Made by a program: the position numbers and the translations under genes
Part shown: positions 5,219 to 30,040 of the stretch, one piece after another
Numbering within the stretch: position 1 is the first letter of the stretch
How the letters are laid out: each line of letters begins with the position of its first letter
The notes under the pieces: model-generated
What the model was told of the DNA's origin: nothing
What the model saw: only the letters and a program-made list of their open reading frames with translations
Databases searched by the model: none
Assembly: GCA_032718475.1 (NCBI GenBank)
Contig: JAUCBJ010003393.1
Location: 1-37,030 of the forward strand
Length of the DNA: 37,030 bases
Direction: 5' to 3'
Source: Nemertoderma westbladi
Lineage: Eukaryota > Animalia > Xenacoelomorpha

Positions 5219-5421
5219 CGTTTCAAGAGTGTCGGGATCGGGAAGGCAGCAAATGTGACTGTTCTTGCATAAGTATACAGATATCAGATATAATGTAGGC
5301 CTAGTACAGTTTGTCGGTACCGGTATATGTAAGTAGTAGGAGAGGTAGTAGGTAGTAGTTTATTATATTATATATATTATATATTATTTATTATATATAT
5401 ATTATATTATATATTATAGTT

Positions 5422-5647: not shown

Positions 5648-5659
5648 TGGTGCGGTGAC
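5648..5659 (+). promoter_or_regulatory. BEL-B primer binding site, tRNA-His-like
   Basis: TGGTGCGGTGAC directly after the LTR; 11/12 match to the complement of the metazoan tRNA-His 3' end (TGGTGCCGTGAC). Confidence 0.8.
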
Positions 5660-6149
5660 AAATTTTGAAATCCAGGACAGACCTGCAAACTGCAAGGTAC
5701 AAACAGTCAGACAGCTCAGCAGTTCCGAATTTAAAAATCGCCAACTGCCGGTACCTACGCCATGATAATAACATTAATGAATACCAATCTGGCGGTCACT
5801 GGTAACCGGTAACGTACCTACTGTCATATACTGCAGATATAGGCTAATATGCCTGATATGATGACACAATATGGCTGACAGTCAGATATAATTGAAATGG
5901 ATACATAAACGCACGGCTTAACTAGCCCTAGAAGAAGCAGCCTAATGCAGTAGGCCTAATGTTATTTCTGTTATTTAATATTGATAATGCAATTCAAATG
6001 CAATTTGGAAATGGTGAGTCAAGTGATGATAGTATTATTATTATTATTGCCTACCTGCTTAGGCCTACCACTACCGGTACCGGTACATCTACTGAACGTT
6101 TACTGGCTGCTATCAACTGAACTTGACCGAAATTGTTAATTGTGAAAAA

Positions 6150-8705
6150 ATGTCTGGGAAAATAAGACAATTAATTGGCCCATTAAAACAACGTTTGATT
6201 AAAAACGTTAATGAATGTTCAACTGTTCTAGACATTCGCATCAGATCAGGCCTAACTATAGATGAGTATAATGTGTTAAGAGAAGATATACTCAAATTAA
6301 ATAATAAAATTGAAAGACAGATTGGACAACTGCAGCAATATGATACCGATTTCTTAGAACTACTTGACGATTTACCCAAAGCAGACAATGAACACGTAAT
6401 TTATGAACAAACTGCTTTGGGTGATAAAGGCTATTTAGATATAGTAGCAATTGGTCAAGATTGTATAGATAGCTTAACTGCCAGATTAAGCACAATTGAC
6501 AGAAATCAGTCATTTGCATCACAAACACCTGTTGAAATCCCCAATGCCAGTGGTAATGTATTTTATGGTACGAGTCAGAGACCACCCGCAGATAGACATG
6601 GACATAGTTTTAGTAGAGATCATAATGCTCGCTTGCCTAAATTAGATTTACCGAAATTTTCGGGTGTTGATATCAACAAATGGGTTGATTATTGGGCAAT
6701 GTTTGAATCATGCGTGGGTTCCAGAACTGATCTCTCTAATATACAGAAATTTTCATATTTGAAAAGTTCTCTGACTGGGAGTGCAGCCAATGTTGTAATG
6801 GGTTTTGCTTTAAATGAAGAAAGCTATATTGAAGCTATTGAATTATTGAATAAAAGGTATGGAAGCAAAACATTACAAAAAACGGCACTATATAAAGAGT
6901 GGGGGTTATTGAAACTATCAAGTAAAAGAGTGTCCGCAATTAGAATTATGGTAGACACAGCACAGAGGATATTCCGCCAATTGAATGTTTTAGGTGATAA
7001 TTTGTATACAAGTGAATTAGTAGCAGCGGAATTCCAAGCAAAATTGCCTGACTGTGTAAAAATTGAACTTTGGAAGGATCACAAAGTGGATGAACCATGG
7101 ATTTTGGTTGATTTATTTGAATGTTTAGATAAATACCTGTTCATACAAGAGCGTCTATCTGAGAACTTTGATAATATCAGTGCTAGTAGTAGTAGTAAAG
7201 AAACCTGTGCCAGATACATTAATGCGAAGGATGACAATTTTGAGAGTGGAACAACTAGTACAATGATGACTACTTCTACTTCCAGTGCATCTACTAGTAG
7301 CAATAAAAATTGTATACTTTGTAATGATCCTCATTATCCAGAGCAATGTACTATTTACAGGACATTGGATAGCAGATTGCAAAAATTGAAATCATTAGGA
7401 CGTTGTTATCTATGTACCCAAAGAGGACATTGTGCAAGTGAGTGTCCTCATAGGGATAATATATTCTGTTTTCATTGTAAAAAACGAAGGCATCACAATC
7501 GATGCTTATGCCCAAGAAAATTTGGTAATGGCAGTGGCAATGCGACAGGGTCTCCTAATATGAGAAATGCTCACAATGATTCCACAAAGAAATCTGGTTT
7601 TCGTGATACTGAGAATTACAGAAAGGGGCCAAACGAAAGTTACAAACCACCTAATAATGTTCAATTTTCATCATCTTCGACCAATTCAGACTGTTCTGTT
7701 AAAAATAAGACTATATCAGATAATTATACAATTAATGTAAATCACACTATGATGAATGTTGACGACTTTACTGTTTTCCACACTGCTACTGTAAAAATGA
7801 GAAGACCAAATTCTGAAACCAGTGTAATGGCAAGAATACTACTAGATTGTTGTTCCAATAAAACATATATTTCAGAACAGAAGGCTAAAGATTTGTCAAT
7901 GGAAAAACTTGGACAACAAGTTCTATCTACAAAAGTGTTTGGAACAAAGAAATTAATGACTGTTTTTTCAGAATTCGGTGAAATTGAAATATTTTTGAAT
8001 GACGGATCAACAAAGTTGATGACTGTAAACACACATCCTGAACTCACAGGAGATATAATTCGTGAGGAGTTAAGTGATGAAGATATGCAAATTATCATGA
8101 AATATCCACGAGAACTACTGGGTGATGAATTAAATAAGGAAAGGGAGATGATTTGCCCAGATATATTGGTTGGCATGGATTACTTTTGGGATTTCTTCAG
8201 ACCAAAGAGATGTGAGAAAGAAATTGAATTGCCATCTGGAATGTTACTTATGCCTTCTACTCTTGGTTTACTTCTTGGTGGGTCATCTGAAAATGGACTA
8301 TACTTACAGAGAGGGGAATCTGCACAAACTTTTTTTGCTTCATCAATGAACAGTTCTATGCATGTTCCATATTTAGAGATTGATAGTAACGATCGTCCAA
8401 CTTACGAAGAGCCAGATTTATCACGATTTTGGAATTTAGAAGCAGTCGGAATTAATGATGATGCTATTGCTAAAGACGACACAGAAATAGACAAACTTCA
8501 AAAAAACATTGTAGTTAGAAATGGCCGCTATCATGTTGGTTGGCCATGGAAAGATAAAAATCCTAAATTGCCCACAAATTACGGTTTAGCGCATGGAAGG
8601 TTAAATTCATTACTCACGTCGTCTATTGAAAGATATACCTTTATTACATGGCTATTCAGATATAATAGTAAAGCAACTGGAAAATGGAATGATAGAAAAG
8701 GTTGA
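6150..8705 (+). CDS. gag: BEL-B Gag (DUF1759-type, three Cys-His knuckles) + aspartic protease; frameshifts near 8620
   Basis: LPKLDLPKFSG...KFSYLKSSLTGSAA; CILCNDPHYPEQC, CYLCTQRGHCASEC, CFHCKKRRHHNRCLC; ARILLDCCSNKTYI; DILVGMD. First ATG at 6150. Confidence 0.9.
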   Translation: MSGKIRQLIGPLKQRLIKNVNECSTVLDIRIRSGLTIDEYNVLREDILKLNNKIERQIGQLQQYDTDFLELLDDLPKADNEHVIYEQTALGDKGYLDIVAIGQDCIDSLTARLSTIDRNQSFASQTPVEIPNASGNVFYGTSQRPPADRHGHSFSRDHNARLPKLDLPKFSGVDINKWVDYWAMFESCVGSRTDLSNIQKFSYLKSSLTGSAANVVMGFALNEESYIEAIELLNKRYGSKTLQKTALYKEWGLLKLSSKRVSAIRIMVDTAQRIFRQLNVLGDNLYTSELVAAEFQAKLPDCVKIELWKDHKVDEPWILVDLFECLDKYLFIQERLSENFDNISASSSSKETCARYINAKDDNFESGTTSTMMTTSTSSASTSSNKNCILCNDPHYPEQCTIYRTLDSRLQKLKSLGRCYLCTQRGHCASECPHRDNIFCFHCKKRRHHNRCLCPRKFGNGSGNATGSPNMRNAHNDSTKKSGFRDTENYRKGPNESYKPPNNVQFSSSSTNSDCSVKNKTISDNYTINVNHTMMNVDDFTVFHTATVKMRRPNSETSVMARILLDCCSNKTYISEQKAKDLSMEKLGQQVLSTKVFGTKKLMTVFSEFGEIEIFLNDGSTKLMTVNTHPELTGDIIREELSDEDMQIIMKYPRELLGDELNKEREMICPDILVGMDYFWDFFRPKRCEKEIELPSGMLLMPSTLGLLLGGSSENGLYLQRGESAQTFFASSMNSSMHVPYLEIDSNDRPTYEEPDLSRFWNLEAVGINDDAIAKDDTEIDKLQKNIVVRNGRYHVGWPWKDKNPKLPTNYGLAHGRLNSLLTSSIERYTFITWLFRYNSKATGKWNDRKG

Positions 8706-9549
8706 TATGATGGATAGTGAAAGTAAAGATGATGACTCAAAGTTAGTACACTATTTACCTCATCATCCCGTGTTCAAACTGGATTCCGAAACTACTCCAA
8801 TAAGAATGGTGTATGATGCATCCTCAAAGGCACATAAATCATTGAATAGTCTAAATGATTGTCTAGTTAGTGGTCCCAACCTTGTCGTTAATTTAACTGG
8901 ACAGTTATTTCGATTTCGCTTATGTAATATTGCTATATTAAGTGATGTAGAAAAGGCCTTTTTGAACATAGGCCTCCATGACAAAGATCGCAATGTATGT
9001 CGATTCTTATGGTTTAAAGATATGTCTAACCCTGTCATGAAAGATAACATTCAATGCTATAGATTTACACGAGTCCCATTTGGCATAATATCCAGTTTAT
9101 TTCTATTACTCGGTGTAATTTATGTTCATCTTGCAATGTATGCTGTAAAACATGAAGATCAAAGGGTTTTATGTGAAGAAATACATGATAATATGTATGT
9201 AGACAATGTTTTGCTGTCCTCAAATACACCTGCAGAAGGGTATGTTAAATATATTGAATTCAAACGGTGCTTCTCAGATGCATCACTCAATCTCAGACAA
9301 TTCATTTCAAATTCTGTGGAATTAATGAATCAAATACCCCCTCAAGACACTTGTGATAACTCTATTGTTAAAATATTAGGACTGACATGGGATACTGATG
9401 CTGATACAATTGCCATTCGAACTGTTAATGCATTAAAATGCAATGATAAATTAACTAAACGAAAATTGATAAATATGGTAGCTAGTTTTTTCAATCCAGT
9501 TAATTCAATTATTATTTCAGAAATCATGGACCTTAGGAAGAAACTATGA
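8626..9549 (+). pseudogene. pol: BEL-B reverse transcriptase (frameshifted at both ends)
   Basis: HYLPHHPV, RMVYDAS, SLNDCL, SDVEKAF, RFLW, RVPFG, YVDN, KILGLTW. Confidence 0.9.
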
Positions 9550-9601
9550 TTGGGATAAGGTACTACCATCTGAGTATCAAGAAGAATGGAAAAATTGTGT
9601 C

Positions 9602-12034
9602 ATGGCAATGAAAAGTGTAGGATTCAAATTTCCACGAAGAATTTTTAGTGATGATAAAGATATAGTTAAAGATATACGATATCAATTGATTTCCTTTACA
9701 GATGCATCAAATTTAGCATATGGGACAGCAATTTATGTTAGAAGGTGTAGTAACAAAACTATTGAAACTAATTTACTTTATGCAAAATCGCGTTTGGCGC
9801 CATTGCCAAAGGTAAAGGCTACTGGAGATGGTAAGGTCAAAGTATCAACTCCTAGACTGGAATTAGTAGCAATTGAAACTGGTATTAAATGCTTTCTATT
9901 TGTGATAAAACATTCCAACCTTGGATTCACTGATATTTATTTGTATTCTGACTCACAATGTGCTTTGCACTGGGTGCAATCTACGAAACCAATGAAAATA
10001 TTTGTTTCGAACAGAGTTAAAGAAATAAATAAATTACCCGCTGTAATTTATCAGTATGTACCAACTGATCAGAACCCCGCTGATCTATTAACACGTGGTG
10101 TAACATCAGAGGCTCTGTGTAACATGAAGTTTTGGTGGAATGGTCCCAACTGGCTCGTTAAGAATGAATCATTTTGGCCAAAATTATGTATGAACCCTAT
10201 TAAGAAAGAAGTTGAAATTGCAATATCAATAGAACATGCCGATATTACTTCAATACATAAAGTATTTGCATTGTCAACCTCATATCCATTAGATATGGAT
10301 CCTACCAGATACTCATCATACATTCAATTATTGCATGTTACAGCTTTTGCATTGCGTTTTATAGCAAAAAGGATGAAGAACAATGTTAAAATTAGAAATA
10401 TGTTTAACCATATTACACTAGATAGAAATATTCATACCAGTGAAGTTGTTATTGCTGAGGCATTATGGATAAAAACAATGCAGAGAATACATTATAAAGA
10501 TGTAATAGAAGATATTATTACTAAGAAATCAAACACTTTGGTTAATCAACTAGGCATATTTATTGATAAAAACAAAATGCTTAGATGTTCCGGACGTTTT
10601 CCTTTTACAGAGGGTTGCTTAGAAAGCAATTTTCCACTATTGTTGGCAAAATCCGATTATGTGACAAAACTGATTATTCTGGAGACACATGAATTGATAA
10701 TGCATGGACGAGTTAATCATACTCTAAGTGAACTCCAGAAAAGATATTGGATTCCACAAGGACGCTCCTTAGTACATCAGATATTGAAATCATGTTATGT
10801 ATGTAAACATTATGGAAATGGTCCCTATAGACTACCTGTATTTAGTCGTTTACCGGATGAGCGAATGGAGGGTTACAAACCTCCCTTTAGTATGACTGCC
10901 TTAGATTATTTTGGGCATATATTTACCAAGAGCTATAAAACAGATGGGGAAAAGGACAAGGTATGGGTATGCTTGTATACCTGCTTGGTTACAAGAGCTA
11001 TTCACTTATAATTGGTACCTGATATGTCTGCTATAGAATTCCTTTTGGCCCTTCAACGATTCTGTTCACGAAGAGGATATCCTAAAAGTATCCTATCTGA
11101 CAATGCATCTCAATTCCTTCTAGCTGATCTTGTCCTTAATGATTTCTGGGATAAATTAATGTTAGACGATGATCTTTCCGGATATCTTACAAAGCGGAGA
11201 ATTAAATGGAAGAACATCCCAGAACTATCACCTTGGCAAGGTGGAATATATGAAAGGCTTGTTGGAGTTGTAAAGACAGTTATGAGAAAGAGTATAGGAA
11301 GGAAACTTTTATATGTTCATCAATTACAAACTATATTGTGTCAAATTGAATATATGATCAACAGTAGACCTTTGACTTACATATCTAGTGAAATTGATGA
11401 TAAGAGGGTAATTACTCCAAATGATCTACTAATTCCAGGACATACTAAATTTATTCAACTATTTGAAGATCATAATGATGATGATGATACTGATTATCTA
11501 CCGAAAGACTCAAGTGTGATGGAAGTTAGGACAAGTTTTAAGAAACAAAACGAAATATTAAATGACTTTTGGTCGCGATGGAATAGAGATTATCTGGATA
11601 TGTTGATGGAGAGAAATACTATATACGATCATAAACACAAGAAGATTAATATTCGTAGCATTCCTTCAATTGGAGAAGTGGTATTACTAAAACAAGATGG
11701 AACTTCCAGGTGTTTCTGGAAAACTGTGATTATTCATGAACTTAATCACAGTAAAGATGGTGAAATCCGTTCTGTACAGGTGATGACCCCCAAAAAGAAA
11801 ATACTAACTCGACCCATAAGCTTATTATATCCATTGGAACTCACAATTGAAGATAAACGAAACAAGAGCAATGAAAAGAATCAAAGCGATTCGGATGGTA
11901 ACAAACATATTGCAAATAGACCAGTGAGGGAATCAGCAATTAAATGTAAGAAACGTATTAGAGATTTGTTACAATCAGATATATTGTTCTCCTTCTGTGG
12001 TGGGGAATGTTGTGAACTCAATAAAAGTACTTAA
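9602..12034 (+). pseudogene. pol: BEL-B RNase H + integrase, with an in-frame TAA at 11009..11011
   Basis: FTDASNLAYG, PRLEL, YSDSQ, NPADLLTRG; HHCC zinc finger; LDYFG, RAIHL*LVPD, SDNASQF, PWQGGIYERLVG; FWSRWNRDYL. Confidence 0.92.
11999..12007 (+). promoter_or_regulatory. BEL-B polypurine tract
   Basis: GGTGGGGAA immediately before the LTR start TGT. Confidence 0.75.
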
Positions 12035-12359
12035 TCTTATTCACGATTTTAGTAGATTACATTTGGTGTTGGGGGGTTATTTCGTGTCGGAAAGTATCTT
12101 TATATTTTGATAGATGTATTAGGTTGTGTTGATATATTATTACTACTGTACCCTTTTTTATTGTTGCAATCAGACTGCTATACTGCAGTACTGTCATATT
12201 GTTATCAGTGATTGGTGTAGATTGATGTAGTGCAGTAGTGCTATTATTTTTATGTACCACGGTCCTTATTACTACTAAATTTAGAATGCAGAATTGAGAT
12301 ATCTAAATACTGAAACTGCTGAAATGTTTTTATATCCGAACCACTATGGGTTCGTGACA
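12008..12359 (+). repeat. BEL-B 3' LTR (352 bp, complete)
   Basis: TGTTGTGAAC...GTTCGTGACA imperfect terminal inverted repeat; identity with 5422..5647. Confidence 0.92.
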
Positions 12360-13967
12360 GTGGGCGAGTCAAATGCCCGGGCGAACTACACAAAACATGA
12401 TACCCGTCCTCTAACCAGTGAGGCAGATGTACAGTCTACGGTGACAGACCAAACTCACGAGGAAACAATCCCCGCGCAGCGAATCCTAACTATCGCTAAC
12501 GGACCCAAATACCGTAAACTTGCCGCGGTGTGATTTATATGGTTTATATACGGGCTAGTGGATTAACAGACTAGCGTAACAATACTGACCGTACTAAATC
12601 AGTCAAAAGGGGGTCGTGCCTAAAGTAACAATACTGTCGGCAGAAACAACAGTCTAATAAGTAAATACTCCTCTTGCCATAAACTAAATATCATATATCC
12701 TAAATTTACAAACTACGAATAGTAAAACTACCGTAGATCCTATCTGAGAATAGCCTAAAGTAGGTAATAACTAGTAGAGCTCTAAGAGTACATATGTTTT
12801 AGGGCATGAGTGTGTGTTTGTGTGTTACGAATAAAATAATTTTGGTGTACTCCATTGTACTAGGTTTTATTGAATTTTGACCGAAACAATACCGGGCACT
12901 AGCTACGAAAATAAGCTAGTCGCACTCTGTAGGGCTTAATACTTACAAAATGACATCAAAGCTCTCTCCTTCCTATCCACAACTCAACCGGGCAATTATG
13001 GTGTTAGTAACTACACCCGTGATCGGCGCAAATACCAGATTCTGGTTGTAAGATAAGAAATAGTTGTTAATTGCTACCGTACGTTAGCTGATCTGGTATA
13101 CAAATTTGATTCTTGAATTTTGTTGCTGCGGTGGTTAGCAGCAATACCTATCAGTATGTGGCAAGGCGCGGTAGGATATTAACAAAACCTCCCTAGGCCA
13201 AGCATGTGCCAGTAGCAGAAATACTCCTTGCCTGATCAAATGACGCGAGCTCAGGCAGGGGGTTGCTACTAATGTATAAGCTACAAAGTGAACCGGTACC
13301 GAACAGGTACCGGTACCTGTGCCTGTGAACCGGTACCTGTGAACCGGTACAGTACTACAAATCACTAAATTATGGAACATATGCTGTCTGTACCTAAAGT
13401 GTACTTGCGTACTGACGAACAGCAATAGTTCACACCTGTAGGGAATACAGGTTAATCGGGGATTTTTAGTACGGGTTCTGCCTGAATCTGAGCTATTTGA
13501 TCCTAAATTTTGCAGCGTCCCAGGACGGCGTCACGCTTACCCTGATCTATAGGTCTTACGGCGGGCAAGGGCGTCAAACAAAGTCTTACCTTCCTCTGAA
13601 ACGGGCGCTGCATGGCAAGGTGGAGTATTTTCGAAGGGGGGGGGGGGGGGGGTGAAGGGGGCGCGCGGGCTAATCTAATGTGGGCGCTTAGCGTGTTGTG
13701 GACATCTTCTCCCTGCGTTGCTGATGGCCTGACAGTTTAAGCAGCCATCTCCCAAACGTTTGGCTGTCCCAATGGTGGACAAGACAAAATATACATGTTC
13801 AAAGTTTACAGTATATTTATGTAATTTACAAAAGATTTATCAAAGTTCAAGTTAATGTAACTAGAAAGGGTATACAAGATTAACAAGATAAGTTAAGGCA
13901 AATAGTTTAGAGTAATAAGATAACTTAATGGTGTTAGTGAGAGTGATAACCGAAGGCAAACCGGCCC

Positions 13968-14104
13968 TTATATAGCAAATATGGGACATAGAATTCACTA
14001 GAACCTTCCAGAGCATTCCATGGCCTCATATTGGAGCAATAAGATGTTCTATGCCCTATGATTGGCCCAACTCATCGTTCCACATGTTGTACGCACCTCA
14101 TTGG
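13968..14104 (-). promoter_or_regulatory. LTR Pol II promoter: three CCAAT boxes + TATATAA (3' LTR copy)
   Basis: ATTGG at 14030, 14061 and 14100; ttatata at 13968..13974; the same arrangement is in the 5' LTR. Confidence 0.6.
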
Positions 14105-14139
14105 CTTATCTAATCAATCAGATCGAAAATAAATAGCCC

Positions 14140-14224
14140 AAAAATGCAAATTTCCTGACTGGGATTCGAACTCGTAACCTAACTGTAATGTAACCAACGC
14201 CTTAACCATCTGACCACTGCGCCA
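14140..14224 (-). ncRNA. tRNA-derived Pol III cassette in the 3' LTR (A box, B box, T5 terminator)
   Basis: TGGCGCAGTGGTCAGATGGTTAAGGCG...GAGTTCGAATCCCAG...TTTTT; no intact acceptor stem. Confidence 0.6.
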
Positions 14225-14361
14225 ATAGAGTCACCTATGAATTAATGTGTACCAATATGAATAGGCATATTACGTTACTGCAATTAAATCAAAATACATC
14301 GGATTTTAGAAAGTTTTTACATTACACTACAAATGCTACATAACAGTGAAATAATCTATCA

Positions 14362-14368: not shown

Positions 14369-15880
14369 ATGAAAACAGTAAGTAAGACTGTTTTCACCAA
14401 TCGAAATACAAACCATTGACTAAATATCTCTTAGGTCTAATAGTGGGGCCTAAAATACAAAACAATCACTGTCTATCTATTGCATACTTAATATTGCAGG
14501 TACGGCGTAAATACAATCCATCATACATACAAAATACAAATTTACTAGTCAACTTTAGTGCATAAAATACAAAAGAGGGCTTTCGGTTATCAAAATAAAC
14601 AAATTAGAACAAATAATTTCAAATGTTTCAATAATATATTACAAATATACATAATAAATTCCTCAAATTAAATCAGTTCAATATAAGTAAACATAATGCG
14701 CTAATAATTTCCAAATAAGTCTTAAAGTGTCCTCCTGACGATTTCAATAGTTCGTCCTACTGGTTTGAATATCTTCTCCTGAGCACTGATTGCTAACGGT
14801 AGGCTCGCAAGCATTCCTTCTCTATCTCGCTCCTCCAAATCCAAATAAAATGGTAGGCTCGCAAGCCTTCCTTCCTTTACCTCGCTCTCCTAATCCTTCA
14901 TCGAGCGGGCTCGTCCCCGCCCTCTAAGACGATTGGGTGGTGGTCGAGATCGAATTGGGCTCGGACTTCAGCGTCGAGCTGTCGATGGTTCTAAAATGCT
15001 AGGAAAGGGAACAACAGGAGTCTCGCACATACGTCGGGCACTCAATCCTCTAAATCCTCGTCCGATTCCAATCATTCATTTCGTAGTGTCGGACTGAGAG
15101 TCTCTACAACGCTAGGAGGGAGTCTAAGGGGTGGGACCGTTCTGTCTGCTGACACCTCACTCTCTGATGTTGTCTTAATCCTCATAGGTTCTGGCAAAAC
15201 GTATCCTGTCCCTCCTCGTGGTTCTCTGGGAAGGGAAACCGTGCCCCGAGTCATCCCGATTTGCGACTTCGATGTCGTCCTCTCGGCGACATTTACTACC
15301 TTCTTAATCTCCTTTCCGGCCTTCTGGCTTCTTCCTTCTTCTAAGTATATGAAGCTGCGGATCTTCCTGTGGATGACTTGTCCTTTCGGCTAGCGGCGTG
15401 GCCTTGAAGCCAGTCTCACGCAAAACGTCCGCCTCATCTAAAATACACGAGGTTACACCATTTGTGATAAAATGCGCTCCGGTATGCCCAAACTATCGAA
15501 TGCCAGGCTCCTTGATTCCGCTGTTCGACTCGCAATTTATCGAACTCTCCGTCGGTAATCTTGTTCACCACAGTCTGAAAATTTCATGTGTTCTTATTGT
15601 TAGGGTGTACCTGTAGGAAGTAGTCCCTAACAACCTTGAAACCGCTATCCAATGGCAATATATCTAGCACCTCTAAAAGTTCATCGTATTGAGGCATAGC
15701 TGACACGTATCCTTCCTTCGACATAATGAGAGGGTTTACGGCCCAAAATCCCAAATGCGATCTCATGGGGAAACGGCGTCACTGCGTCGACATATGTTCG
15801 TCTGCTAGATTCTCCCAATGGTCGAATAGCTGTCGAATGATCTTAACTGACATATACTTATAGGGAACGTCCCTAAGTTG

Positions 15881-16060
15881 GCACTCGGATGCCATATGAC
15901 CTTTAATATTGCAATATGTGCACTGAGCCACGAAACGCCAACAGGTGTAGAAAGTGTGTGAACGTTGATCCCCACACCAGTTGCACACTAAATCTGGTAG
16001 AGATATGTGTTTCGCTCCACATTTCTTTGCGTGATGGCCAGTAGCCCCGCATCTGCCACA
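15881..16060 (-). other. Three CCHC zinc knuckles in ORF3
   Basis: CGRCGATGHHAKKC, CNWCGDQRSHTFYTC, CTYCNIKGHMASEC. Confidence 0.9.
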
Positions 16061-16648
16061 AATGGTGTTGGCAGGATAACAAACTCGCTTATAGATGAGA
16101 TCCCCGATGGGGCGAGCGCTACCGTCCACGTGATAATTCTCATCATCCGGGTCAGTCGGTACGTTCGTCTCCGTAGGTTGTACACAAACCATGGCTTCGC
16201 TTTTCTCTAATTCGCGTATCTCGGTTCGCGTCTTCCTCGGAAGGTTCTCCTCTATTTCTATGAGTTGCCGCAATGGCTCGTCTATTATCGCAGACTAGGT
16301 CGGATCCTCATCGCCATGATGTGCGGTAGACTCGCGAGCCTTCCAGGATCCTTCTGGGCCTTTGAACTCCGCGTGGCGTTCCCCGTCGTAGGGTACTAAC
16401 ATCAACATCGACGGTCCGTCGACTAGGCTTCCCGCGTGAGTGAGATAAACGTCCCTAAAAACGCTAAGTCCCTCACGCGTGAAAACTTCGCAGTGCGCAT
16501 CGGTGTTATAAAAGGGTTGGAGAAATCGGCGGAATACATCAGTACGCGTCCTTCCTCCGTCGTAAATGGTATGTCCTTCACCGAGACATAACAGATGTCG
16601 CTTTAGAGTCCTAGACACTACATTGGCGATGAAGCATACGTTCACCGA

Positions 16649-17266
16649 AGATTCAATCGCCAAATAGTATTGCAAGATTATTCGTGGAGGTGAGGTAATC
16701 GCCCAATACACGCAACTTCGCCACTTCAACTGTGACTCAAACTCGTTTACGCCAGGGGTATCTCCCTCATCGTATACGTCTGTGTATTTGCTCCTCTTAC
16801 TCTCTTTATCTCCCAACTGAACATGAGATATGAGTGAGATATAATCCGTTCCAGTTTTTAGCGTGTTATACTCTCTGAAATATCCTTGCTCGATAGCCCA
16901 AAGCAACAATGGTCTAGTATCCACGTAAGGCGTAGGCAATTGATCCTCCTCCTCGGGCATTCCTGCGAAATCACTAATAAGGTCCTCCCGTACACCGGAT
17001 CCGATCTTGACGATACTCTTATCAAGTACAATGTCACGCATGGCCTTTGGCAACATCCTAGCTTCTATGCTACAAGCCAGGTCCATGGATTTAATTATTC
17101 GTTTTATCATTGCGTGTCTTTGCGTCTTTCCTTCAGGCATAGGCATCTTTCTATCGCTCCTCTGTCGGCTGAATACGTGTAGCACTCTGTCAGGTACACG
17201 AATCTGTATGGTCTTTGAAGTGAGGCTCTGCTGATGGCTTCTTCCTTCATTATCATAAAACATATA
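16649..17266 (-). other. WRN/EXD/RNase D-like DEDDy exonuclease domain in ORF3
   Basis: ExoI YMFYDNEG; LPKAMRDIVLDKSIVKIGSGVREDL resembles the ExoII consensus LPxxLxxLLxDxxIxKVGxGxxxD; YVDTRPL; ExoIII-like W...YYLAIES. Confidence 0.7.
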
Positions 17267-18700
17267 ACCGTTCTCATGCAGAGATTGACTCATCGCGTCC
17301 CAATCGTTGAGTAAATTGTCAGTAGGGTTCCAAATTCTCCCTATGGACTTTTTGTCGTCGAAACTAATAGGTTTCCCCGTCCAATTGGTCGCAATGTCGG
17401 TTTCGGTTTCGAACGTGGCGACTCCGATCCATAATCAAATCGTTTTAGCCAGATATCCTCGCAAGATACAAGGTACGATATCCATCCCCGCACGATCCAC
17501 TTCCTTAAAATCCGTAATATGTAGAGGCACGTTGCGTATGATTTTCTGAACTATTGTTCTACGCAACTCCGCCACATCTAACACATCACCAAACGTAACC
17601 GATGGGAGGAAATCCAGGTTCGAAATGATCTCCGGGTGTTCAACTATGGGAATCTCGTAAGTTGTCTCCTCTCGGGTTGGTATACTAATAGGAAAGCTGG
17701 TTGGTCTCGCGACTGGTACTACCGCTTTAGTAGGATGGGGCTGAGGTTCTTGCGTCATCTCGACATGAGGTATCTGTAATCTCTGCGACAAATGCTGAGC
17801 AAAGGTGATACTATCGAAGAGTTCCGGTGTCATCTCCTTCGGTTCAGTTTGATCGTAGGATATCCAATAAAATGGTAGGCTCGCGAGCCTTCCACCAAAC
17901 TCCTCGATCTCGCCTTTCTCGTATGCTTTGTACGCCCTATAGAGGCTCAAAGCTTCCTGTTTCTCTTGTGTCGACTTATTAGACTCGTCCACTATCATAC
18001 TATAGACTTCTGGTTCTACTAATTTGGGTTCATAAATAACAATTTTGCCCATGTTCGGTCCACTCATTTTAAACGAATGGTACGGATTTGTCAAAGGGTA
18101 TCTGCCTTCTTGGTAACACAGACTTTGGTGGTATGAACATCGTGCTAATATCGGCTCGGGGTTCTCCGAGTTCAAGCGCATAGGAATCGCGTTGTCTTGG
18201 TCACGCATATATCCTCCACATTTATAGAACAGTTTATAAATGGAGAATGCGTCCTTGGTCTCTAGATCCGCTCCTCGAGCGCATCTATAAAGATGCATTC
18301 CATCGAATTCGTCCCTAGCTGCAGGCAAGGGTTCACTCCCCGTCAAATATTGCAGCGTATGATATAATCGGCATATCTCCGTGTCTGGATCCTCGCAAAT
18401 GTCACTAGCGTCGCATAACGCATCGTAGGGGTACAAGGCATTGAACTCCGCGCGTACCTCCTCCGCTCTTTTGTCATAAGCGTCCAACCGCTGTCGCCTA
18501 ACATTCGGGTCCACCTTGGATTTAGCGAGCTTGGCCGTACTCCTAGCTATACTCTCCACTCCAAACACGTTAAAGTTTTTGGCTCCATAACGATTAAACG
18601 GTGCCTGGTGCTCCTGCTCCTGTGTAAATCCCTGACATAACTCCTTGTAAATCTTCTCCGCCATCATATACGCGTATATATGGTTACATATCGTTACGTT

Positions 18701-18729
18701 CTACTAGATGAAGCACAAATAGAGGTTAG
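18701..18729 (-). promoter_or_regulatory. Candidate branch point + splice acceptor in front of ORF3
   Basis: CTAAC-CTCTATTTGTGCTTCATCTAG|TAG| followed by 11 open codons to the ATG at 18667. Confidence 0.6.
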
Positions 18730-19435
18730 ATGTGAGGAGACTTAGAGTTTTGTCAGCTTTTGGCTCAACTTTGCTCTAAAACCCCTACCCATTTGCCTAA
18801 TGACTTCGGGTTTCACGTGATTTCGCACTGGCTCCTAATCCAAAAAAAAGTGCCGATAAAAAACGAATTCCGGGTAAACTAGCCGTGAGTCTAAAATACT
18901 CACCTTTTAATTTCCCAAACTACTTTCCCAAAGAAAAATAGTGCAGTCGAGAATTAATTCGGTCTAAAATAATAGTAGACACGACTACGTAGAACAAGGC
19001 CGATTTTCTTTTCCAAAAAAATTTTTATCGGTAGGCTTGCAAGCCTTCCATCCGCTCTTGTCCTCCCCAATTTTAATTTTTATCTAGCTGTATCCTAGAA
19101 TTCGCATCCACTGGAGAATCGTTTTTCTTAAATTTAAATCCAACCAAATGGATTTGTCTAATAAATTTTGAAAAATTGTCTCACTTGTGGGTTCCAAGTA
19201 GAATTCCATTCCTACTGTAACACAATACCGCTCCTATATGTGATACATAAGGGTTCTACCCTCCATGTTCACATATAAAGACAATGGAATTCCACCACTG
19301 CCTTTATCTACAGTGAAGAGGAATACAAATGTGCATACAGTAATACAAAATACTAAATCGCTAAAATACAGTAAGGCTATGTGGCGACCATCGAGGGTCC
19401 CACATCTCTATTTACTTAGATTGGGTGGAGATTTG

Positions 19436-19482
19436 TAGTCTCCTGTCTCGTTTCTAGTCTCCTGTCTCGTTTCTAGTCTCCT
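19436..19482. repeat. 19-bp tandem duplication at the pol stop
   Basis: tagtctcctgtctcgtttc x2.5. Confidence 0.9.
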
Positions 19483-20886
19483 CAAGGAGCACGAGATGTT
19501 GTACAGGCCTATCTACGGTACGTCCGTCAATAGTCCGTACAGTAACTGTCCTTATTACACCAGATGTAGGGTGCGTGGTCAAAATGACTCCAGTCAGCCA
19601 AAACCGTCGTTTCAAATTGGTTTCAGCCAATAAAACATGGTCACCTTGTCTCAAACATCGGGTATTAAGATACCAAGAGGTTCTGGCCAAAATAGAGGGC
19701 AAATAGTGCTTCTGCCATATTTCCCAGAATTTGTTGGCTACAACTGAGTGATTTTCCAAGCTTTGTTGCCGTATCCGTCGTTATCGACAGGTATCGAAGT
19801 GGGCAACAATGTCATCAGCGCCTGCATAAGCAGGTGCGCTGGTGTCAAGGCAAACTGTGAGTCGTTGTTGTCTGGGATCAAAGCGATTGGACTAGTGAAC
19901 TAGAACTTAGTTACTGGACTAGAAAACCGCGTCGATTTCTATTAACAACGTCGTCAGTTGGTCATCTGTCAAGATGCGTTGCGTCGGTATTACTTTCGCC
20001 ATAGCCGTCTTGATTGACCCAATCAGTCTTTCCCAAACGCCACCTCTCCACGGACTGTCAGAAGTGTTAAAGCTCCAGACAATACAGTGAGGACGTAGTT
20101 CTTCGGAAATCTGGTTTTGGTCCAACTTTTTTAAGGCTCTGGTGATTTCATTCCATGCACCCACAAAGTTAGTCCTTGGTCGCAATAAATGGATTTGACC
20201 AATCTGCGTCTAGCGATAAATCGCCGTAAGGCTAGGATAAAGGCGTTGGTGGTTAAATCTGTCACAAGCTCAATATGGACAGCTCTGCTGGCCATGCAAG
20301 TGAAGATCAATCCCCAGCGTTTTACCTGTACCCTTCTGCATTTCGCGATTATGGGTCCAAAACAGTCTATCCCTGTCTCAGTGAAAGGGGGTCAAAAGCC
20401 TGTAATCTTGCTAGTGGTAGTTCACACATTTCTTGGTGTCCTATCCTCGCTCGCGTGCACTTTCTTACAAATCATACAGTTCCGTGTTACCAAACTCAAT
20501 GCCTTGCTAGGCCTAATCAGTACAAACCTCGAGCGTAAGTGTGATAGACAGTGATGCCGACCTACGTGTTTCAGTCGTACATGTGCGTCCAGTATCATAG
20601 CGCGCTGTAAGCGCGCGTTGCGGTATGATGATAGGATATCAAAGTCAATGTTTTGGAGTCTGGACTTGTGACAAAGTAAGCCCCTATAGATTATCAGACT
20701 CCAACTCAGGATCGGTGAAGGATTGATCTGTTTACCCTGATTGATCGCTGTGAACTCTCGTGCGAAATATCGCAATTGATAATGTCTTATAATATCAACT
20801 TCACAAAGACCAACTTTCTCCAAGGTAAGCCTTCTAGGAAAGTCGCGTTTGCCTCTGGCATATTGAGCCATGCTAACTTGCGGCAC
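19454..20886 (-). pseudogene. pol: BEL-C integrase (fragmented)
   Basis: HVRLKH...CMIC; GIDCFGP; IFTCMASRAVHIE; TNFVGA; SPWRGGVWERLIGSIK; KFWEIWQKHYL. Confidence 0.9.
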
Positions 20887-21360
20887 GCGTCAGTCCATGA
20901 TCTAGTTAGGTTGACTATCCTGTCAACGTAAGTGTTAGTGACGTCATCAGGTAAGGTATAGTCAAAGTGTGGGTACTTGTTCGGACTTGGTAGGCCCACG
21001 GGCCTTCCGGTGAGTGTCTCCCTTTGTACAATAGGTTTGTCTGAGTCCTCAAGTATTTTAATCTCCATGGTCTTACCTTTACCGTCCACACTCATTGAAT
21101 TGACTGGCAGTAACGGTTTCAACTCTACAGTATTAGTGTGTTCCTGTGAGCTCGTAAGCTTCCTAACCTTAGTCCCACGTTTACCTGTAGATGGTAAGTC
21201 AAGTATTTTCCTTGAGTGGAGTGTGATCGCTGTGGCCACACCTTCGATGCCCAAGGAAATCAAATTCGGTAAGTTGTTAATACCTAGTGGGTGTGTACTA
21301 GTCCTCTCCAATGGATTCATTGCGTCCTTATAGCACACGTCGTTACTTTCCAATTGTTTG

Positions 21361-21786
21361 TCTAGTGGAAAGTCTAGTAGACAGTCTGGTGAGGCGTCCG
21401 GCGAACAGTCTGGTGAGATGGGTGGTGAGACATAGCACGGAACTTCCGGTGAAATGTCCTGTCGTCTGTCCCAAAGAAAGTCTGGCGTAGCTTCTGTCAG
21501 AATGTCTGGTCCAAAGTCTAGTGGACAGTCTGTCGAGATGTATGGAGGAAAGTCTGGTGAGATGTCCGGTAGACAATCTGTCGAGAGTTCCATAAAACAA
21601 TCTGGCGAATAATCCGGAAAACAGTCTGGTGTCGCTTCTGGCGAATAATCTGGCGAGTCATCTCGTGAACAAAGAAACGTCTGGTGAAATCTCCCGCGGA
21701 ACATCCGGTGAAAGATTCGTACGAATGTCTGGTCGAGTGTCTGCTGAGACGTCTGGCGTAATGTCAGGTCTAACGTCCAGGTCATC
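21361..21786 (-). repeat. Degenerate 12-bp coding minisatellite (about 35 units, xxPD peptide) in the RNase H-integrase linker
   Basis: Period-12 units such as tctggtgagatg, tccggtgaaatg, tctggcgaataa; protein SPDYSPEATPDCFPDYSPD... Confidence 0.85.
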
Positions 21787-21860
21787 AGATTTCATCCGTC
21801 CTTGTTTACTCTTGACCTTGGCGTTGGCTTTCACTTTGGACTTAACAACAGTGTCGATTT

Positions 21861-22716
21861 TTATCTCGGCACCCTCCGGTACCGTGTTAGTTGTCGCGTC
21901 AAATAACGGTGGCCATTCGTCCGATGGTCGTGGTAGGAAGTCAGGTCCTCTAAACCAAAAGGATTTATTGTCCGGTTTACAAAAGTCAATGACGCGATGT
22001 CAGCTGGGTTCAGTTTCCCTGGACAGTGACGCCAATCTTGTTTGTGCGACAGGTCCAATATTTCAGCCCATCTGTTGGCTACAAAAGTCTTGAACTTAAA
22101 TGTTTCGTTGTTTATGTAGCAAAGTACCAACGTGGCATCCGTCTAATACGTGACCTTCAAGTTAGCCTCCAGCTCGCGTTGAACTAGACTGACAATATCG
22201 GTGGATATCGTCCCGGCTTGCAGCTCTCCACGAGGTACAGTCATATACTTCAATGGCATTGTTCTAGCCCTAGAAATAACGAGAGACACATCGTAGCTGT
22301 CCGATTCCACTTGTTGTCTAAGGTATAAGGTAACCCCCAGTCCATCCTTACTAGCGTCGCTGAAACTGTGAAGCTCTAAGTCGGCAGGAAAGGTGGTCTG
22401 CAAAGGAAAGTATACCCTCGGTATGGTATAGTCTTGTAAGAACGTCAGTTGGGCTTCCCAGTCCTTCCATTGTTCAGCTAACTTTGCTGGGATAGGATCA
22501 TCCCATTCCAGTCCGGCTTGCCAAATGCTGCGGAGTATGATCCTGGCGTGTAGGATCACTGGACTAATGAGACATAATGGGTCATACAATCGACTCATGG
22601 TCGATAAGCAAGTCCTCTTTGTGAGAGGTCTAGTCTGGTCATTGGACCTTACTCGCACCCTAAACCTATCGGTGTTTGGGTCCCAACTAAGTCCTAATAC
22701 CTTGGTCGTAGGTTGA
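21861..22716 (-). pseudogene. pol: BEL-C connection/RNase H region
   Basis: KVLGLSWD, LTKR, LYDPLCLISP, WDDP, HSFSDAS, PRGEL, Y*TDA, FVANRW, NPADIAS. Confidence 0.9.
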
Positions 22717-23973
22717 GGTTATAGGTCTAAGTCCAAGTCACCTCCACTGTGATCCATCGGGTCAAATGAGTTTACTAGTTCGGGTTCGTTGGAAGCGAAC
22801 TTAGTGAGGCGAAATCCGCCCTCGGCGAGACAATCTTGGAGTTGGTGCGCTACGGTCGTAGCATACTCCAGAGTGTCACAACTCTTGAGGCCGTCACTCT
22901 CGTTCCACTGTCTGAGCTACTTCTGGGTCAAATTGGTCTCGTCTGTCCAATGCTGTTTACTTTAAGGCGTACATGGTGCAGTTAGGGCTATCCCTGGCCC
23001 CGAAGACTCTTACCTGCATTTGGTAAGTTTCTGGCAGAAGTTTCTGTCCGGGTACCAAAGAAACCTCAAACTGTCCCTGTCCCACTCCAAAGCCTTAACC
23101 TGGTGAAACATGGCCTCTACATCACAGGTGAACTTTGTGTTGTCTAAAACGCATTAGGACTCCCATGAGGTAATTATTCATATTCAGCCTGTCCATCAGT
23201 TCGCTGTACATCCCTTGTATAGACATCCCTTGGTAAAGCGCGGCGCAGTCATTGACTACACGCACCTTGCCAGGTTTGTCCGTGTCCGGGTGTCTAACAA
23301 AATGATGTGGCAGGTAATATGTTTGATCTGTGGTTACCTCGGGATTTAACATCCTAATGGCGTATCCCTTTTGGAGATACGTCTGAAGTTGCGCATTGTA
23401 TTGCATATGGGCTGTCTCATCACGCAACAATCGCTGCCTTATTGATTTGAGTAGCCTCAAAGCAAGCGGGTAGTTGTTAACGAGCTTAGGTTGTCCATGG
23501 CGCCACAACATGCCAATTTCGTAGTGGCCATTCGCAGTCTGGCGAATGGTATCTCTCATAATATTTAATGACCGTTTTTCCTGTTCTGACATAGCGGTCT
23601 CGTAACTACCAGGTTCTGCTGAGTCCTGTTCTAACCATTTAATGGTCCGTTCAGTCAGCAGTCGGTCAAGCGCTGCTTGCACTGCACCATAGTCCTCGTC
23701 TACGTCTTCGTCCGCTGCGGTGGCTAGTGTCAATGTGTCTGGTAGGCTCGCAAGCCTTCCGGTGTCACTAGTCGGCGTCGAAACGTCGTGAGGCGGTTTG
23801 ATAACCTTTTGATCTGTCGGTATGCTCGCAAGCCTTCCAAGATCAACGACCGGTGTCGAAGCCTGGTGAGTGGGGTCAATGACCTTCGGATTTATCGGTA
23901 GACTCGCAAGCCTTCCAAAACCCTCATTCATCGAGTCATCCACAGCAACAACCCTTTGGTCTTCAGTAGTCAA
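22717..23973 (-). pseudogene. pol: BEL-C reverse transcriptase and upstream linker; YVDD motif damaged by a small deletion near 22895
   Basis: GHYEIGMLW, YYLPHHFV, KVRVVNDCAA, DVEAMFHQV, LRFLW, VFGARDSP, DGLKS, GGFRLTKFASN. Confidence 0.9.
23741..23916 (-). repeat. Three 78-bp-period repeats in the PR-RT linker, each carrying the stem-loop
   Basis: GRLAS(L/I)P...KVI.P.H..STP repeated; motif starts at 23741, 23819, 23897. Confidence 0.85.
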
Positions 23974-24078
23974 TACAACCTCTTTCGCTGCAAGTAGCTG
24001 TAAGTCAGAGGTCCGTGTGGTTGTGTCCAGATCAGTTACGTCAGTATCAGTTACGTCAGTGTTAGCGACGCAAGTCTG

Positions 24079-24811
24079 TCATAGTACAGTCTGTACAATT
24101 GGACCACAGGAGTGTGAAGGAGAATTATCTATCGTGGTAGTCAGTAAACTACACATACTCAAAACGTCGTCCTCCTGGTCACTTACCTCTAGTGAACGCA
24201 CTGGTGCTCTAGTATACCAACCTATGGGAGTTCTACATGTGTAGGGGTTGCCCGCTGTAATAACAGATGGGCGTGTCTCCCATACCTGATGTAAGTTAAA
24301 CTGGTCTGTCCCAATCAACATCTCGATTGAGCGAAAGTTAACAGGACATTCTGGTATTCCAAGGTGTCGGAAATACTTACGATCTTCTGCTGATTGCTGC
24401 GAAGTCCTTCGTAGCTGCAAAGGTCAAATTTCTAACCGGAAGTAATGAGCGCTCCACCTTGCTGTGTTCCACTTTGGAAAGAAGAGTATCTAAAGTTAAT
24501 TTAACTCTCGTCACAGGAATCACTCTCTTACCATGCATGCTGCTTACAGTATACTGAGCAGTCTTACCTTTACTCATGTCAGTAACTACATCGGCTACTT
24601 GTTCGTCGACGCAACTATGCGATGACGCAGAGTCTAGGATAGCGTATATACGCCTGCTCCCTCGGGTTCCGGTAATCTTTATAGGAATCACGCTAAACCC
24701 TTTCAATTGGTTCTGTGTGAGGAGTGTTATGGATGGTTGTTCCTCCTCCGCATGCACATAAAAGGTGTCATCTTCCTCCTCGTCCTCGTCCGATGATCCT
24801 GATTGATCCAT
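24079..24811 (-). pseudogene. BEL-C aspartic protease (frameshifted)
   Basis: IPIKI...IYAILDSASSHSCV; IEMLIGTD; TPIGW. Confidence 0.85.
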
Positions 24812-24936
24812 ACAGTTAGTATAGAAGTTATGGATTTCGCATGGGCGCGCCCCATGCGAAATCCATAACTTCTATACTAACTGTATGGATCAATCAGGAT
24901 CATCGGACGAGGACGAGGAGGAAGATGACACCTTTT
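24760..24936. repeat. Perfect inverted repeat, 86-bp arms, 5-nt spacer
   Basis: 24760..24845 is the reverse complement of 24851..24936; spacer cgcgc. Confidence 0.95.
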
Positions 24937-27900
24937 CTAGCCGCTTTATCTGGATGCTTTCGTCGAAAGTGTTTGGTGGGAGTATGACTATTTGTGTGGA
25001 GTAACGCGTCATGGTTACGTCCACATAGAGGACATGTATCATGTCCTGGGCAATCCTTCCGGACGTGTCCAGGCATGGTACATCTCCAACAAGAATCCAA
25101 CAGTCGAATTTGGAGTCTTCTCTCTTCAACTCCCAACTCTCTAAAGGCACGACATCCACGTATGTAATATCCGCTGTAGTTTCTGCTGTTTCGTTCACAA
25201 TATGGGCATCCCATATAATCCGCCGGCAACTGTTGTCGTGGCTGTTTGGTGCCGATAGGCGTCAGAACTTTAGAAGTGTCTGTTGGGGTGGCATAAGTCA
25301 CGGTTTTTAAGTTTCGGCTCACCAGACAGAACCTGGAGCAAGTAATTAAACTTCTCCGTTGAGGTGAAGGCACACTTAGCGATATGGGACTCTACGTAGT
25401 CTACCAGCCTACGCCAGTGCTTCGTGTTGCCAGAGAACTTCGGCGGTTGTTGTGCCGGTAATCCGTGTCTGGCCGCAAACTTAGCAATCTCGCTAACTAA
25501 GTCTAACTGTCCACGTCCCTGTTCGGTTACGTCGTCCAGTCATTCCCTTCCGTGCGTTATCCGTCGGTAGGAAATGTTAATGGGATCTTCTTCTCGATGG
25601 TTCGGAGTCTGTCTAGTCTCCTGTTCTCTCCGTGGTGGTCGATGTTGTCTAGGTTGTTCCACTTCCACAGTCGCTCTTCTATCTGAGGTAGTCGATCCGT
25701 TACAGGTCGCATTATTTCGGTGAGTCTGTTGGTGCGAATCGTCTCAGTCGGTTGTAACACAGGTTTCTGGACGGGTGTTTCTCATGGAGGATTGTTGATG
25801 TAATGATTCGTCGATCTCTCCTCTCGTTTGTAATCATCCGCCGGTCCAGTACGGAATATTTCCCTCTCGGTCGACTCCGAGTCACTAGAGGAGTCGCTGT
25901 CATCCGGATAAGGTGGTTGATGTGTTCGCGTCCGGTGTATTATTCTTGTCGGTCGCGTCTGTCTTTGTACGGCGTCCTCGGTTCTTCGTCTTCTGGTAGG
26001 CTCGCAAGCCTTCCATGAAGTCATAGGTCTCGATAAGTTCCTGTGGATGTACTCCACAAACTTCGTCCATTGTTCGGTGTCCTCGGTTCATCACCGTCTG
26101 GTAGGCTTGCAAGCCTTCCACGAAGTCATAGGTCTCGTTACACAGTGTGTCAGTGGTCGAATAAAGCAGCCAGGATTCGTAGTCGGTCTGTAAATGACTG
26201 GGTTCGCGCAGCACGTTACAGGTTTAACTGCTAACGGCTTACTTACCTGCTTAACTGTCATAAGTACAGGTTCCTCTCTTCCTACGAGTAAACTCTGGCT
26301 TACTGTAGGTGGACTACTTACTTCACCTGCTAAAATCGGCAATGACGTCGCTCTAGGTTGCGGTATTTCTGTCACAACAAACCTGTTACCTTGCATTGAA
26401 CGCACAGGTGATATTTCCTTCGGTTTTGCAACTATGACCAGTTTTACTGGAGTTGTGGGTTTGAGCATAGGAATAACTTGGGGAAAACATTGACAATAAT
26501 CCTCGATGAACTCCTCTCCTTGATCTATAACTCCCACACTTCCTTCCTCGATTCGCTTCTGAATTCCGCGATATTGAGTCTTCATGCGATCCAGGGCAGA
26601 CAAGTCATGTCTAGCTCGAGACCATATAGATCTATAAGTTTCGAGTTCGAGGTCCTCTTGCGCGTTCGCCACCTCGCACGATCTGCAATTTAGTTCGAAC
26701 TGGAGCCGCATCTCCCTTTCGCGTCGATCGGCTACCTGTTGTTGTGCCGCTCACTCCGCTTCCTGTATGGCTAAATGAGCGTTTATTTGTCATGCCTCCA
26801 ACTTGGCACGAGCATTGGATGCTGCTTTCTTCCGTGCTAACTCAGCTGCGTTTACCACCGCAACTCGTGCTAACTCGTCAGCTGCTGCCTGTCGTGCCAA
26901 CTCGTCAGCTGCCGCTTGTCGTGCTAACTCATCAGCTGCCGCCTGTCGTGCTAACTCGTCGGCTGCTGCCGCTGCGGCCGCTTTTCGCCCTAAATCCACC
27001 TCTAATCTCCGCATTTCTGATGCTTCAAATTCGGCTTGAGCCTGGAGTTTTGCAAATTTCGCTACATCGTCTCGTCACTGTCTTTCTCTTTCAGCCGCAA
27101 TCTGTGCCAACTGCCGTTGCGTTTCTTCCTCAGCGACTTGTTGTCGGCTTGCAACCTCCTGTTGTTGTCGAGTAATTACAGACGCTGTCCTACTAACATC
27201 GCCAATGTCGCTCCGTACACTAACAAATGATCTATCCAGTTGTGGAATTTGGTAGGCTCGCGAGCCTTCCGTAGTTAGAACTTCCGTCATCCCTCACGGT
27301 TCGACTTCCAGTTCTTCGATCGGTACGCTGCATCTACGAAGAAAATTGGTGAGTGTCTCTAACCTCCCGTCCAGTTAGTATAGTTCTTCTTCCTCTTTGG
27401 GTTGTAACAACGCGTCCGAAACTGACTCACCTAACAGTTGGTCAAACTGCTGAGCCAATCTTACTACTGATTTAAACTGAATGAGGCTTTCCCTCGCACT
27501 TACCAACTTATCTATTATCTTTACCTGAGTAAAGTTGTCGCCACGCAACTCTGCAAGTTCGTGTAAACCTTTCAGTTTATCTACGGAGGCATGTATCCTA
27601 CTTTCTATCCTTACCTGTAAGGTGTAGAACTCGTATCTCGACATTGGGGCGGTTAACTCGCGTAAAACGCGAAAACTTTCTCCGAAGTTTCGAGTAATCT
27701 GGGCCATGTGTCCTCCTATACTCCTAATAATGTTCTCCTGGCTTCCAGTCGAACTTACCATGTCCGGTTCCCACGATCTGGTCTGCGGGACGGTAAGGAA
27801 ATCTTCGATTCTGCCGTCGCCATGCGTTGCAGCTTCTGGTATTTCCGTTCGGGGTACCGGCGATGCACGCGGTGTGACATCGGTAGAATCTTGGGTTTTT

Positions 27901-30005: not shown

Positions 30006-30040
30006 CTTATCTAATCAATCAGATCGAAAATAAATAGCCC

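Follow-up and report, generated by a model that had tools for sequence, protein, structure and literature searches.

A giant BEL/Pao retrotransposon of Nemertoderma westbladi with a likely exonuclease–zinc knuckle gene in the env position and a dispersed 20-nt hairpin

Introduction

What does a long terminal repeat (LTR) retrotransposon do with a third open reading frame (ORF) that occupies the env position without encoding an envelope protein? The question is raised by contig JAUCBJ010003393.1 of the xenacoelomorph Nemertoderma westbladi (assembly GCA_032718475.1), of which positions 1–37,030 form the window analyzed here. A decayed LTR element spanning ~18 kb lies on its minus strand, from 30263 to 12361. 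The third frame of this element, here called ORF3, had been predicted from its sequence to encode a DEDDy-type 3′–5′ exonuclease-like domain followed by three CCHC zinc knuckles. We examined the frame, the domain and the knuckles, and describe in addition a divergent homologue of ORF3 and a short hairpin repeated along the element.

The capture of a nuclease by an LTR element has precedent, as does the joining of an exonuclease to CCHC knuckles. DEDDy ORF3s are known from the bdelloid rotifer LTR retrotransposons Juno and Vesta and from Athena/Terminon elements; they have the motif DEED, no activity has been shown, and the function of such element-borne nucleases is posed as an open question (PMC5408684). 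The account is repeated in PMC5718144 and PMC6431247. The original prediction had named this rotifer precedent correctly. For the nematode precedent that it gave alongside, our literature search found nothing, and nematodes go unmentioned in PMC5408684. We also found no paper on a DEDDy ORF in a BEL/Pao or Cer element in the open-licence literature, repeat databases and most subscription journals lying outside that search. The architecture of a large N-terminus, exonuclease and triple knuckle had been called unfamiliar. Its exonuclease–knuckle part has a counterpart in TbRND, the RNase D of Trypanosoma brucei (PDB 7c42/7c45), a DEDD exonuclease with four CCHC knuckles, which enhance both the binding and the cleavage of RNA (PMC7797062). 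What the present case adds is the BEL/Pao host, the WRN-type branch, another, divergent homologue and a hairpin dispersed along the element.

ORF3 is a single frame after pol in a BEL/Pao element

The gag-pol region (19457–27989, minus strand) encodes Gag with zinc knuckles, a protease with a DSAS motif, reverse transcriptase (RT), a Peptidase_A17 region, integrase and DUF5641, in a reading frame interrupted by stops and many frame changes. Because of its matches to PF05380 (E = 1.3e-38) and DUF5641 (E = 3.5e-16) and the order protease–RT–RNase H–integrase, the element is a BEL/Pao LTR retrotransposon, as predicted. ORF3 sits in the env position, between the end of pol (~19457) and the 3′ LTR, and is separated from pol by a gap of ~800 bases.

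Four ATG-initiated ORFs ending at TGA 17435, TAG 16295, TGA 15779 and TGA 15584 had been taken as pieces of one broken minus-strand frame, and this holds. From an ATG at 18667 the main frame runs through 1,077 codons (15434–18667) with these four internal stops, where the other two frames have 48 and 78, and is closed by the stop at 15436–15434. The proposed length of ~1,300 codons did not hold up, as the frame has 13 stops in the next 238 codons, down to 14723. A greater length is obtained only with a tail in another frame (15072–15389, minus strand), a basic, Pro/Ser-rich stretch of 105 stop-free codons that resembles a tail in the second homologue described below; counting it as frame-shifted may bring ORF3 to ~1,200 codons. 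The LTRs differ at 46 of 1,585 aligned sites (Kimura two-parameter distance 3.0%), a divergence that predicts ~1.9 new stops in ORF3. The four observed are thus sufficiently explained by decay after insertion, consistent with neutral decay of a copy that has been inactive from about the time of insertion. The main frame (15437–18667) shows no frame change over 3.2 kb, and the gag-pol motifs (19457–27989) switch frame many times; ORF3 may have been under selection for longer than gag-pol. In the gap between pol and ORF3 (18835–19323, minus strand), splice-acceptor-like sites start at 19323 and 18850, with a donor-like AAGGTGAG at 18906. ORF3 may have been made from a spliced or internal transcript.

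Judged by hydropathy, ORF3 is not an env glycoprotein, because it lacks a membrane-spanning segment: across the 1,077 codons no window exceeds 1.6 and the highest 19-residue value is 1.48. This separates it from the third ORF of env-bearing BEL/Pao elements (semotiviruses, PMC2774666), with which the present element shares its superfamily and the placement of a third ORF after pol. The first 410 residues (17438–18667) had no family match or relative in Pfam, NCBIfam and PHROG scans, and the N-terminal 290 residues retrieved nothing in Atlas (best score 0.76). The 410 residues comprise an unassigned region and, after it, a Pro/Glu/Ser/Thr-rich linker.

An exonuclease-like domain of the WRN/EXD2/Mut-7 type

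Positions 16600–17383 on the minus strand encode what is likely a DEDDy exonuclease domain of the WRN/EXD2/Mut-7 type. It contains two insertions, the acids D-x-E and D and a candidate ExoIII Y-x3-E, and lies wholly within one stop-free stretch (16298–17434). The motifs on which the prediction had been built are all present in the frame: YDNEG (17257–17243), LPKAM...REDL (17053–16979), YVD (16927–16919) and YLAIES (16666–16649). As a reference family, we assembled a WRN-like profile from a pattern scan that yielded 120 bacterial loci, 54 of them with a domain of at least 170 aa. A 20-row subset retrieved PF01612 proteins (45/45), and its leading PDB matches were WRN, Mut-7 and EXD2. When the 54-domain profile was run against the window as 372 six-frame chunks, it scored best at LPKAM...REDL, the ExoII motif (within-window E = 0.036). 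With the same profile, a 379-aa piece of ORF3 scored 8.2 bits compared to a best of 2.7 in 1,000 shuffles, and hhalign aligned ORF3 with the family over 85–86 columns, reaching LGDKESK (P = 55%, pairwise E = 1.2e-4).

The likeness is strongest at ExoII, where K-x-G...D, the following strand and the LG..K helix are all present (11 bits, 0/500 shuffles, hhalign P = 70%). Six motif matrices were built from 107 domains and scored at ORF3 sites chosen beforehand by eye. The expected sites ranked 10/1064, 3/1060, 1/1054, 1/1067, 1/1063 and 50/1056, in the order of the family, and none of the 74,033 six-frame positions in the whole window scored higher with the ExoII matrix than its ORF3 site. The first of these ranks belongs to the ExoI D-x-E, whose D was also aligned by MAFFT, and the last to the ExoIII candidate.

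As to the branch, the prediction had ranged from WRN, EXD and Mut-7 to RNase D. Profile comparisons place the domain in the WRN/EXD2/Mut-7 branch and not with RNase D: five 10-sequence WRN-like profiles gave 6–9 bits against ORF3 (0/500 shuffles each), whereas a 10-sequence profile of bacterial RNase D, with Rrp6 not included, gave −4 bits (95/500 shuffles). ExoII takes the K-x-G form, as in 94 of 95 WRN-type homologues. Membership in the RNase D group was rejected on that negative score, a lack of the K-x-x-H form of ExoII and the absence of an HRDC match in Pfam. ORF3 has in common with WRN, EXD2 and Mut-7/Nibbler (PF01612) the K-x-G ExoII, the six-motif order, a probable D-x-E and the D acid, and differs from them in its two insertions, in the E at the candidate ExoIII acid and in lying below Pfam detection. 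As a lead only, an Atlas language-model search listed a WRN-like exonuclease cluster third (0.86).

Several observations weigh against this assignment. Scans of Pfam, NCBIfam and PHROG gave no exonuclease match for ORF3, including none to DNA_pol_A_exo1, the Pfam family proposed for checking it. Hidden Markov models of the ExoI–β3 block, silent at the D-x-E, and of the ExoIII block missed their sites, and 160/500 and 80/500 shuffles scored as well. In 107 pairwise alignments the ExoI D coincided with the family D 32 times and the ExoIII E only 6 times, and MAFFT placed ExoIII and β2–β3 differently from the reading by eye; three other alignment layouts were dropped, as MAFFT misplaced blocks. 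At the candidate site of the fourth acid ORF3 has E, as the prediction had noted, and D occupies this position in 98 of the 99 homologues; TbRND needs this acid, its D230A variant being nearly dead (PMC7797062). Two fold models, a poor single-sequence AlphaFold model and one whose input included WRN-like rows, limited to the central 70 residues (pLDDT, a per-residue confidence score, 31 and 56), did not assemble the domain (best Foldseek E = 0.1). A VIA structure search of the model gave Z up to 2.1 for EXD2, weak matches that are partly circular given those rows, and a wide search returned unrelated helices with Z up to 3.2. Database searches found no relatives of ORF3 residues 400–1090 or of the 379-aa piece, nor of the core of that piece in plasmids or of the knuckle piece in viral contigs. 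Exact look-up retrieved none of eight ORF3 pieces, a PDB sequence search gave two chance matches, both to disulfide isomerase, and Pfam detected none of the known partner domains of WRN, EXD2 and Mut-7. Finally, the exonuclease part is known from one copy, the homologue being visible in its C-terminal half only.

On balance, the domain very probably has an exonuclease fold. The predicted DEDDy likeness is real in the profiles but uneven, strong at ExoII, moderate at ExoI and weak at ExoIII. With the tyrosine and three of the acids retained and E standing at the fourth, we put nuclease activity in the living ancestor at slightly better than even.

Zinc knuckles and a second homologue

The predicted triple knuckle lies at 15881–16060 (minus strand), in the stop-free piece 15782–16294, with CX2CX4HX4C at 16060–16019, CX2CX5HX4C at 15985–15941 and CX2CX4HX4C at 15922–15881. 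Together, the knuckles carry the last 233 residues of ORF3 past the Pfam zf-CCHC cut-off (22.7 versus 20.8 bits). They are followed by a post-knuckle domain (15437–15880). In a six-frame knuckle search, a CX2CX5HX4C/CX2CX4HX4C pair with identical 21-residue spacing recurred near the end of the window. It belongs to a second, divergent ORF3 homologue (35812–36862, minus strand) that comprises knuckles, post-knuckle domain and a basic tail, is broken and spread over two frames, and has its 5′ part beyond the window. The two proteins agree at 34% over 38 aa in the knuckles (E = 7e-8) and at 24% over 80 aa in the post-knuckle domain (pairwise E = 6e-7), while no DNA-level similarity was found between them. 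Because this homologue is so divergent, at least the C-terminal half of ORF3 is, by protein comparison, an old protein conserved as such and retained in two divergent lineages of one genome.

A 20-nt hairpin dispersed along the element

The large element also carries a 20-nt imperfect hairpin, GGAAGGCTYGCRAGCCTACC, at 12 sites with at most three mismatches, compared to 0.01 expected. The copies (14798–27270, minus strand) start at 27251, 26100, 25995, 23897, 23819, 23741, 20989, 19030, 17874, 16325, 14852 and 14798, all in one orientation and within the internal region; none occurs in the remaining 22.7 kb of LTRs, neighbor element and flanks. The hairpin explains the top-ranked dispersed 12-mers of the large element (the best 8 of 14 rows), of which the neighbor element and both flanks have none. 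Two copies fall within ORF3 and three just outside it. Because the hairpin of the element thus lies inside ORF3 and on both sides, and as no long direct repeat bracketing the frame was found, ORF3 belongs to the element, and its arrival as a later insertion is unlikely. The regions flanking ORF3 have seven 10-mers in common, two of them derived from the hairpin.

Sequences around the copies are mostly dissimilar, and the core would be translated as GRLASL at some sites and WKA at others, a difference in frame that points to constraint on the nucleic acid. All 12 copies retain the A-A mismatch, and the copy at 20989 shows a two-sided change of the closing T-A to C-G; two G-U variants, compatible with ordinary decay, were left out of this support. 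The stem is only 7 bp long, and the inner stem probability in a 200-base context is at least 0.85 in six copies and ~0 in three. GGAAGGCTYGCRAGCCTACC may be an RNA hairpin or a DNA dyad, as the data fit either. The copies form eight clusters spaced 1.2–2.8 kb (evenness P ~0.011, with clusters defined post hoc). A tiny host insertion was considered as their source; all 12 hairpins lack a flanking duplication of 4–8 nt, and both the single orientation and the confinement to the internal region speak against it as well. Rfam has no match for the hairpin, its only match in the window being that of a long palindrome near 24.8 kb to a microRNA family, below the cut-off. Five exact matches in metagenomes had the core alone in common with the window and no translated match, and were taken as chance. 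Our search of the open-licence literature yielded no account of hairpin signals dispersed along a BEL/Pao element. The hairpins may be protein-binding sites on the element RNA.

Possible roles of ORF3

Our preferred reading, held tentatively and with somewhat less than even confidence, is that ORF3 was an accessory RNA-binding 3′–5′ nuclease acting in the ribonucleoprotein of its own element. It builds on features read directly in the window: the post-pol position, the single frame, the knuckles, the lack of a membrane segment, the C-terminal homologue and the 12 same-strand, element-confined hairpins. ORF3 would be a captured WRN/EXD2/Mut-7-type 3′–5′ exonuclease, joined to three zinc knuckles and now broken. 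We favor this role because the CCHC array of TbRND raises RNA binding and cleavage; by the same analogy, the knuckles of ORF3 would grip single-stranded RNA and pass its 3′ end on to the active site. The protein would then trim RNA 3′ ends inside the ribonucleoprotein, with the RNA of the element itself as the presumed substrate, and the hairpins could serve as repeated docking sites that load a protein, Gag or ORF3, along the unusually long genomic RNA. What links ORF3 to the hairpins is the element common to both, and nothing else, which counts against this part of the scheme. A bolder extension, in which a giant BEL/Pao clade encodes its own RNA-handling system with a WRN-type exonuclease–knuckle protein recognizing a 20-nt hairpin every ~1–3 kb, seems to us decidedly unlikely. 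If true, it would mean that the element marks, moves or compacts an RNA of 16–18 kb by a self-encoded protein and dispersed signals rather than by one 5′ packaging site.

The protein might instead be directed at the host, trimming or sequestering the 3′ ends of PIWI-interacting or small interfering RNAs as a counter-defence. We regard this as doubtful. The domain falls in a branch that includes Mut-7/Nibbler, which have a role in small-RNA trimming or silencing, and, as a soluble protein with an ORF of its own, it could work in trans. A mut-7-like silencing role has been raised by Rodriguez et al. (PMC5408684). However, the WRN-type match does not favor Mut-7 over EXD2 or WRN, and a counter-defence leaves the hairpins unexplained. 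The hairpins are the center of a further scheme, to which we give slightly less credence, in which the exonuclease is catalytically dead and ORF3 is an adaptor that reads the 12 copies for transport or packaging. Its model is RNA recognition by Egalitarian (Egl)–BicD, likened to ORF3 by description only: the exonuclease-homology domain of Egl binds stem-loops without catalytic residues, among them the I-factor retrotransposon signal, two stem-loops per transcript raising specificity (PMC13186709). Egl is unlike ORF3 in being a host protein with LOTUS-like domains. The E in place of the otherwise nearly invariant ExoIII D and the even spread of the post hoc hairpin clusters fit an adaptor, but a long-dead enzyme would not be expected to retain three acids and the tyrosine, and the E could postdate insertion. 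Moreover, bdelloid ORF3s with a D-to-E variant at another position (DEED) are read as possibly active (PMC5408684), the stem of 7 bp is short, and Gag, with its own knuckles, would be a simpler reader.

Two readings appear less probable still. The exonuclease likeness could be partial or coincidental, leaving ORF3 an unassigned knuckle protein with one WRN-like stretch; the missing family match and database relatives, the poor fold models and the unsupported ExoIII speak for this. We nevertheless consider it improbable, as the ExoII matrix ranks its site first in the whole window, the three central motifs are first in ORF3 and in the right order, and the independent language-model search offers its WRN-like cluster, if only as a lead. 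The least likely of the proposed functions, and one to which we give very little credit, is proofreading during reverse transcription of a long genome. Family A and B DNA polymerases use DEDDy domains for proofreading (PMC5408684) and the element is ~18 kb long, but ORF3 is separate and not fused to RT, has RNA-type knuckles and the WRN-type K-x-G form of ExoII, and shows no tie to the RT complex.

Compared to known systems, the closest parallel in genomic setting is the ORF3 of Juno and Vesta, which likewise encodes a soluble DEDDy-type protein in place of env and has E instead of D at one acid. Those hosts form the Juno and Vesta clades and are not called BEL/Pao in PMC5408684, which terms their ORF3s RNase D-like with DEED, whereas the present ORF3 is WRN-type with a candidate DEDE; the relevant sections of that paper describe neither a knuckle array on ORF3 nor dispersed hairpins, and the present element has both. 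TbRND matches the order of exonuclease and CCHC array but is a cellular mitochondrial enzyme of ~375 residues from the RNase D group, with four knuckles and an intact DEDD. The knuckles of ORF3 number three, and the protein is longer by ~430 residues at the N-terminus and by another domain at the C-terminus; the two architectures are probably convergent. On these comparisons, nuclease genes in the env slot would occur beyond rotifer elements, in the BEL/Pao superfamily and from another DEDDy branch; the difference in branch suggests that LTR elements captured RNA-trimming enzymes repeatedly and independently. The 12-fold hairpin offers a handle on the question of what such nucleases do.

Other features of the window

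The LTRs of the large element are two direct repeats with TG...CA ends. The 5′ LTR (28675–30263, minus strand) measures 1,589 bp and the 3′ LTR (12361–14361, minus strand) 2,001 bp, including a 373-bp extra stretch that is one of six insertions or deletions between the pair. The sequence 3′ of the 5′ LTR (28600–28674, minus strand) starts with TGTATTAGAATAG, not the usual TGG primer site. No target-site duplication is visible (flanks GACAG versus CCTGA) because a younger BEL/Pao element abuts the left end, so that the left flank is an LTR of that element. At the gag–protease junction (24760–24936) there is a perfect inverted repeat with 86-nt arms and 5 nt between them, resembling a fold-back duplication. 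The RNase H–integrase linker (~20800–22000, minus strand) is enlarged by ~350–400 codons with Ser-Pro-Asp-rich 12/24-nt repeats, an enlargement absent from the neighboring BEL element.

That younger 7-kb element (5422–12359, plus strand) has long open frames and near-identical 226-bp LTRs (one mismatch), with neither an ORF3 nor a dispersed hairpin; its observed/expected CpG ratio is 0.56 compared to 1.01 in the large element. Further retroelement sequences lie toward both ends of the window. On the minus strand, positions 3–5359 contain an RT-bearing ORF (3–1217). Two unassigned ORFs, 477 and 758 aa long, precede it, and the 758-aa ORF contains a 75-nt tandem repeat. Two RT fragments from another retroelement lie at 31796–34001 on the plus strand.

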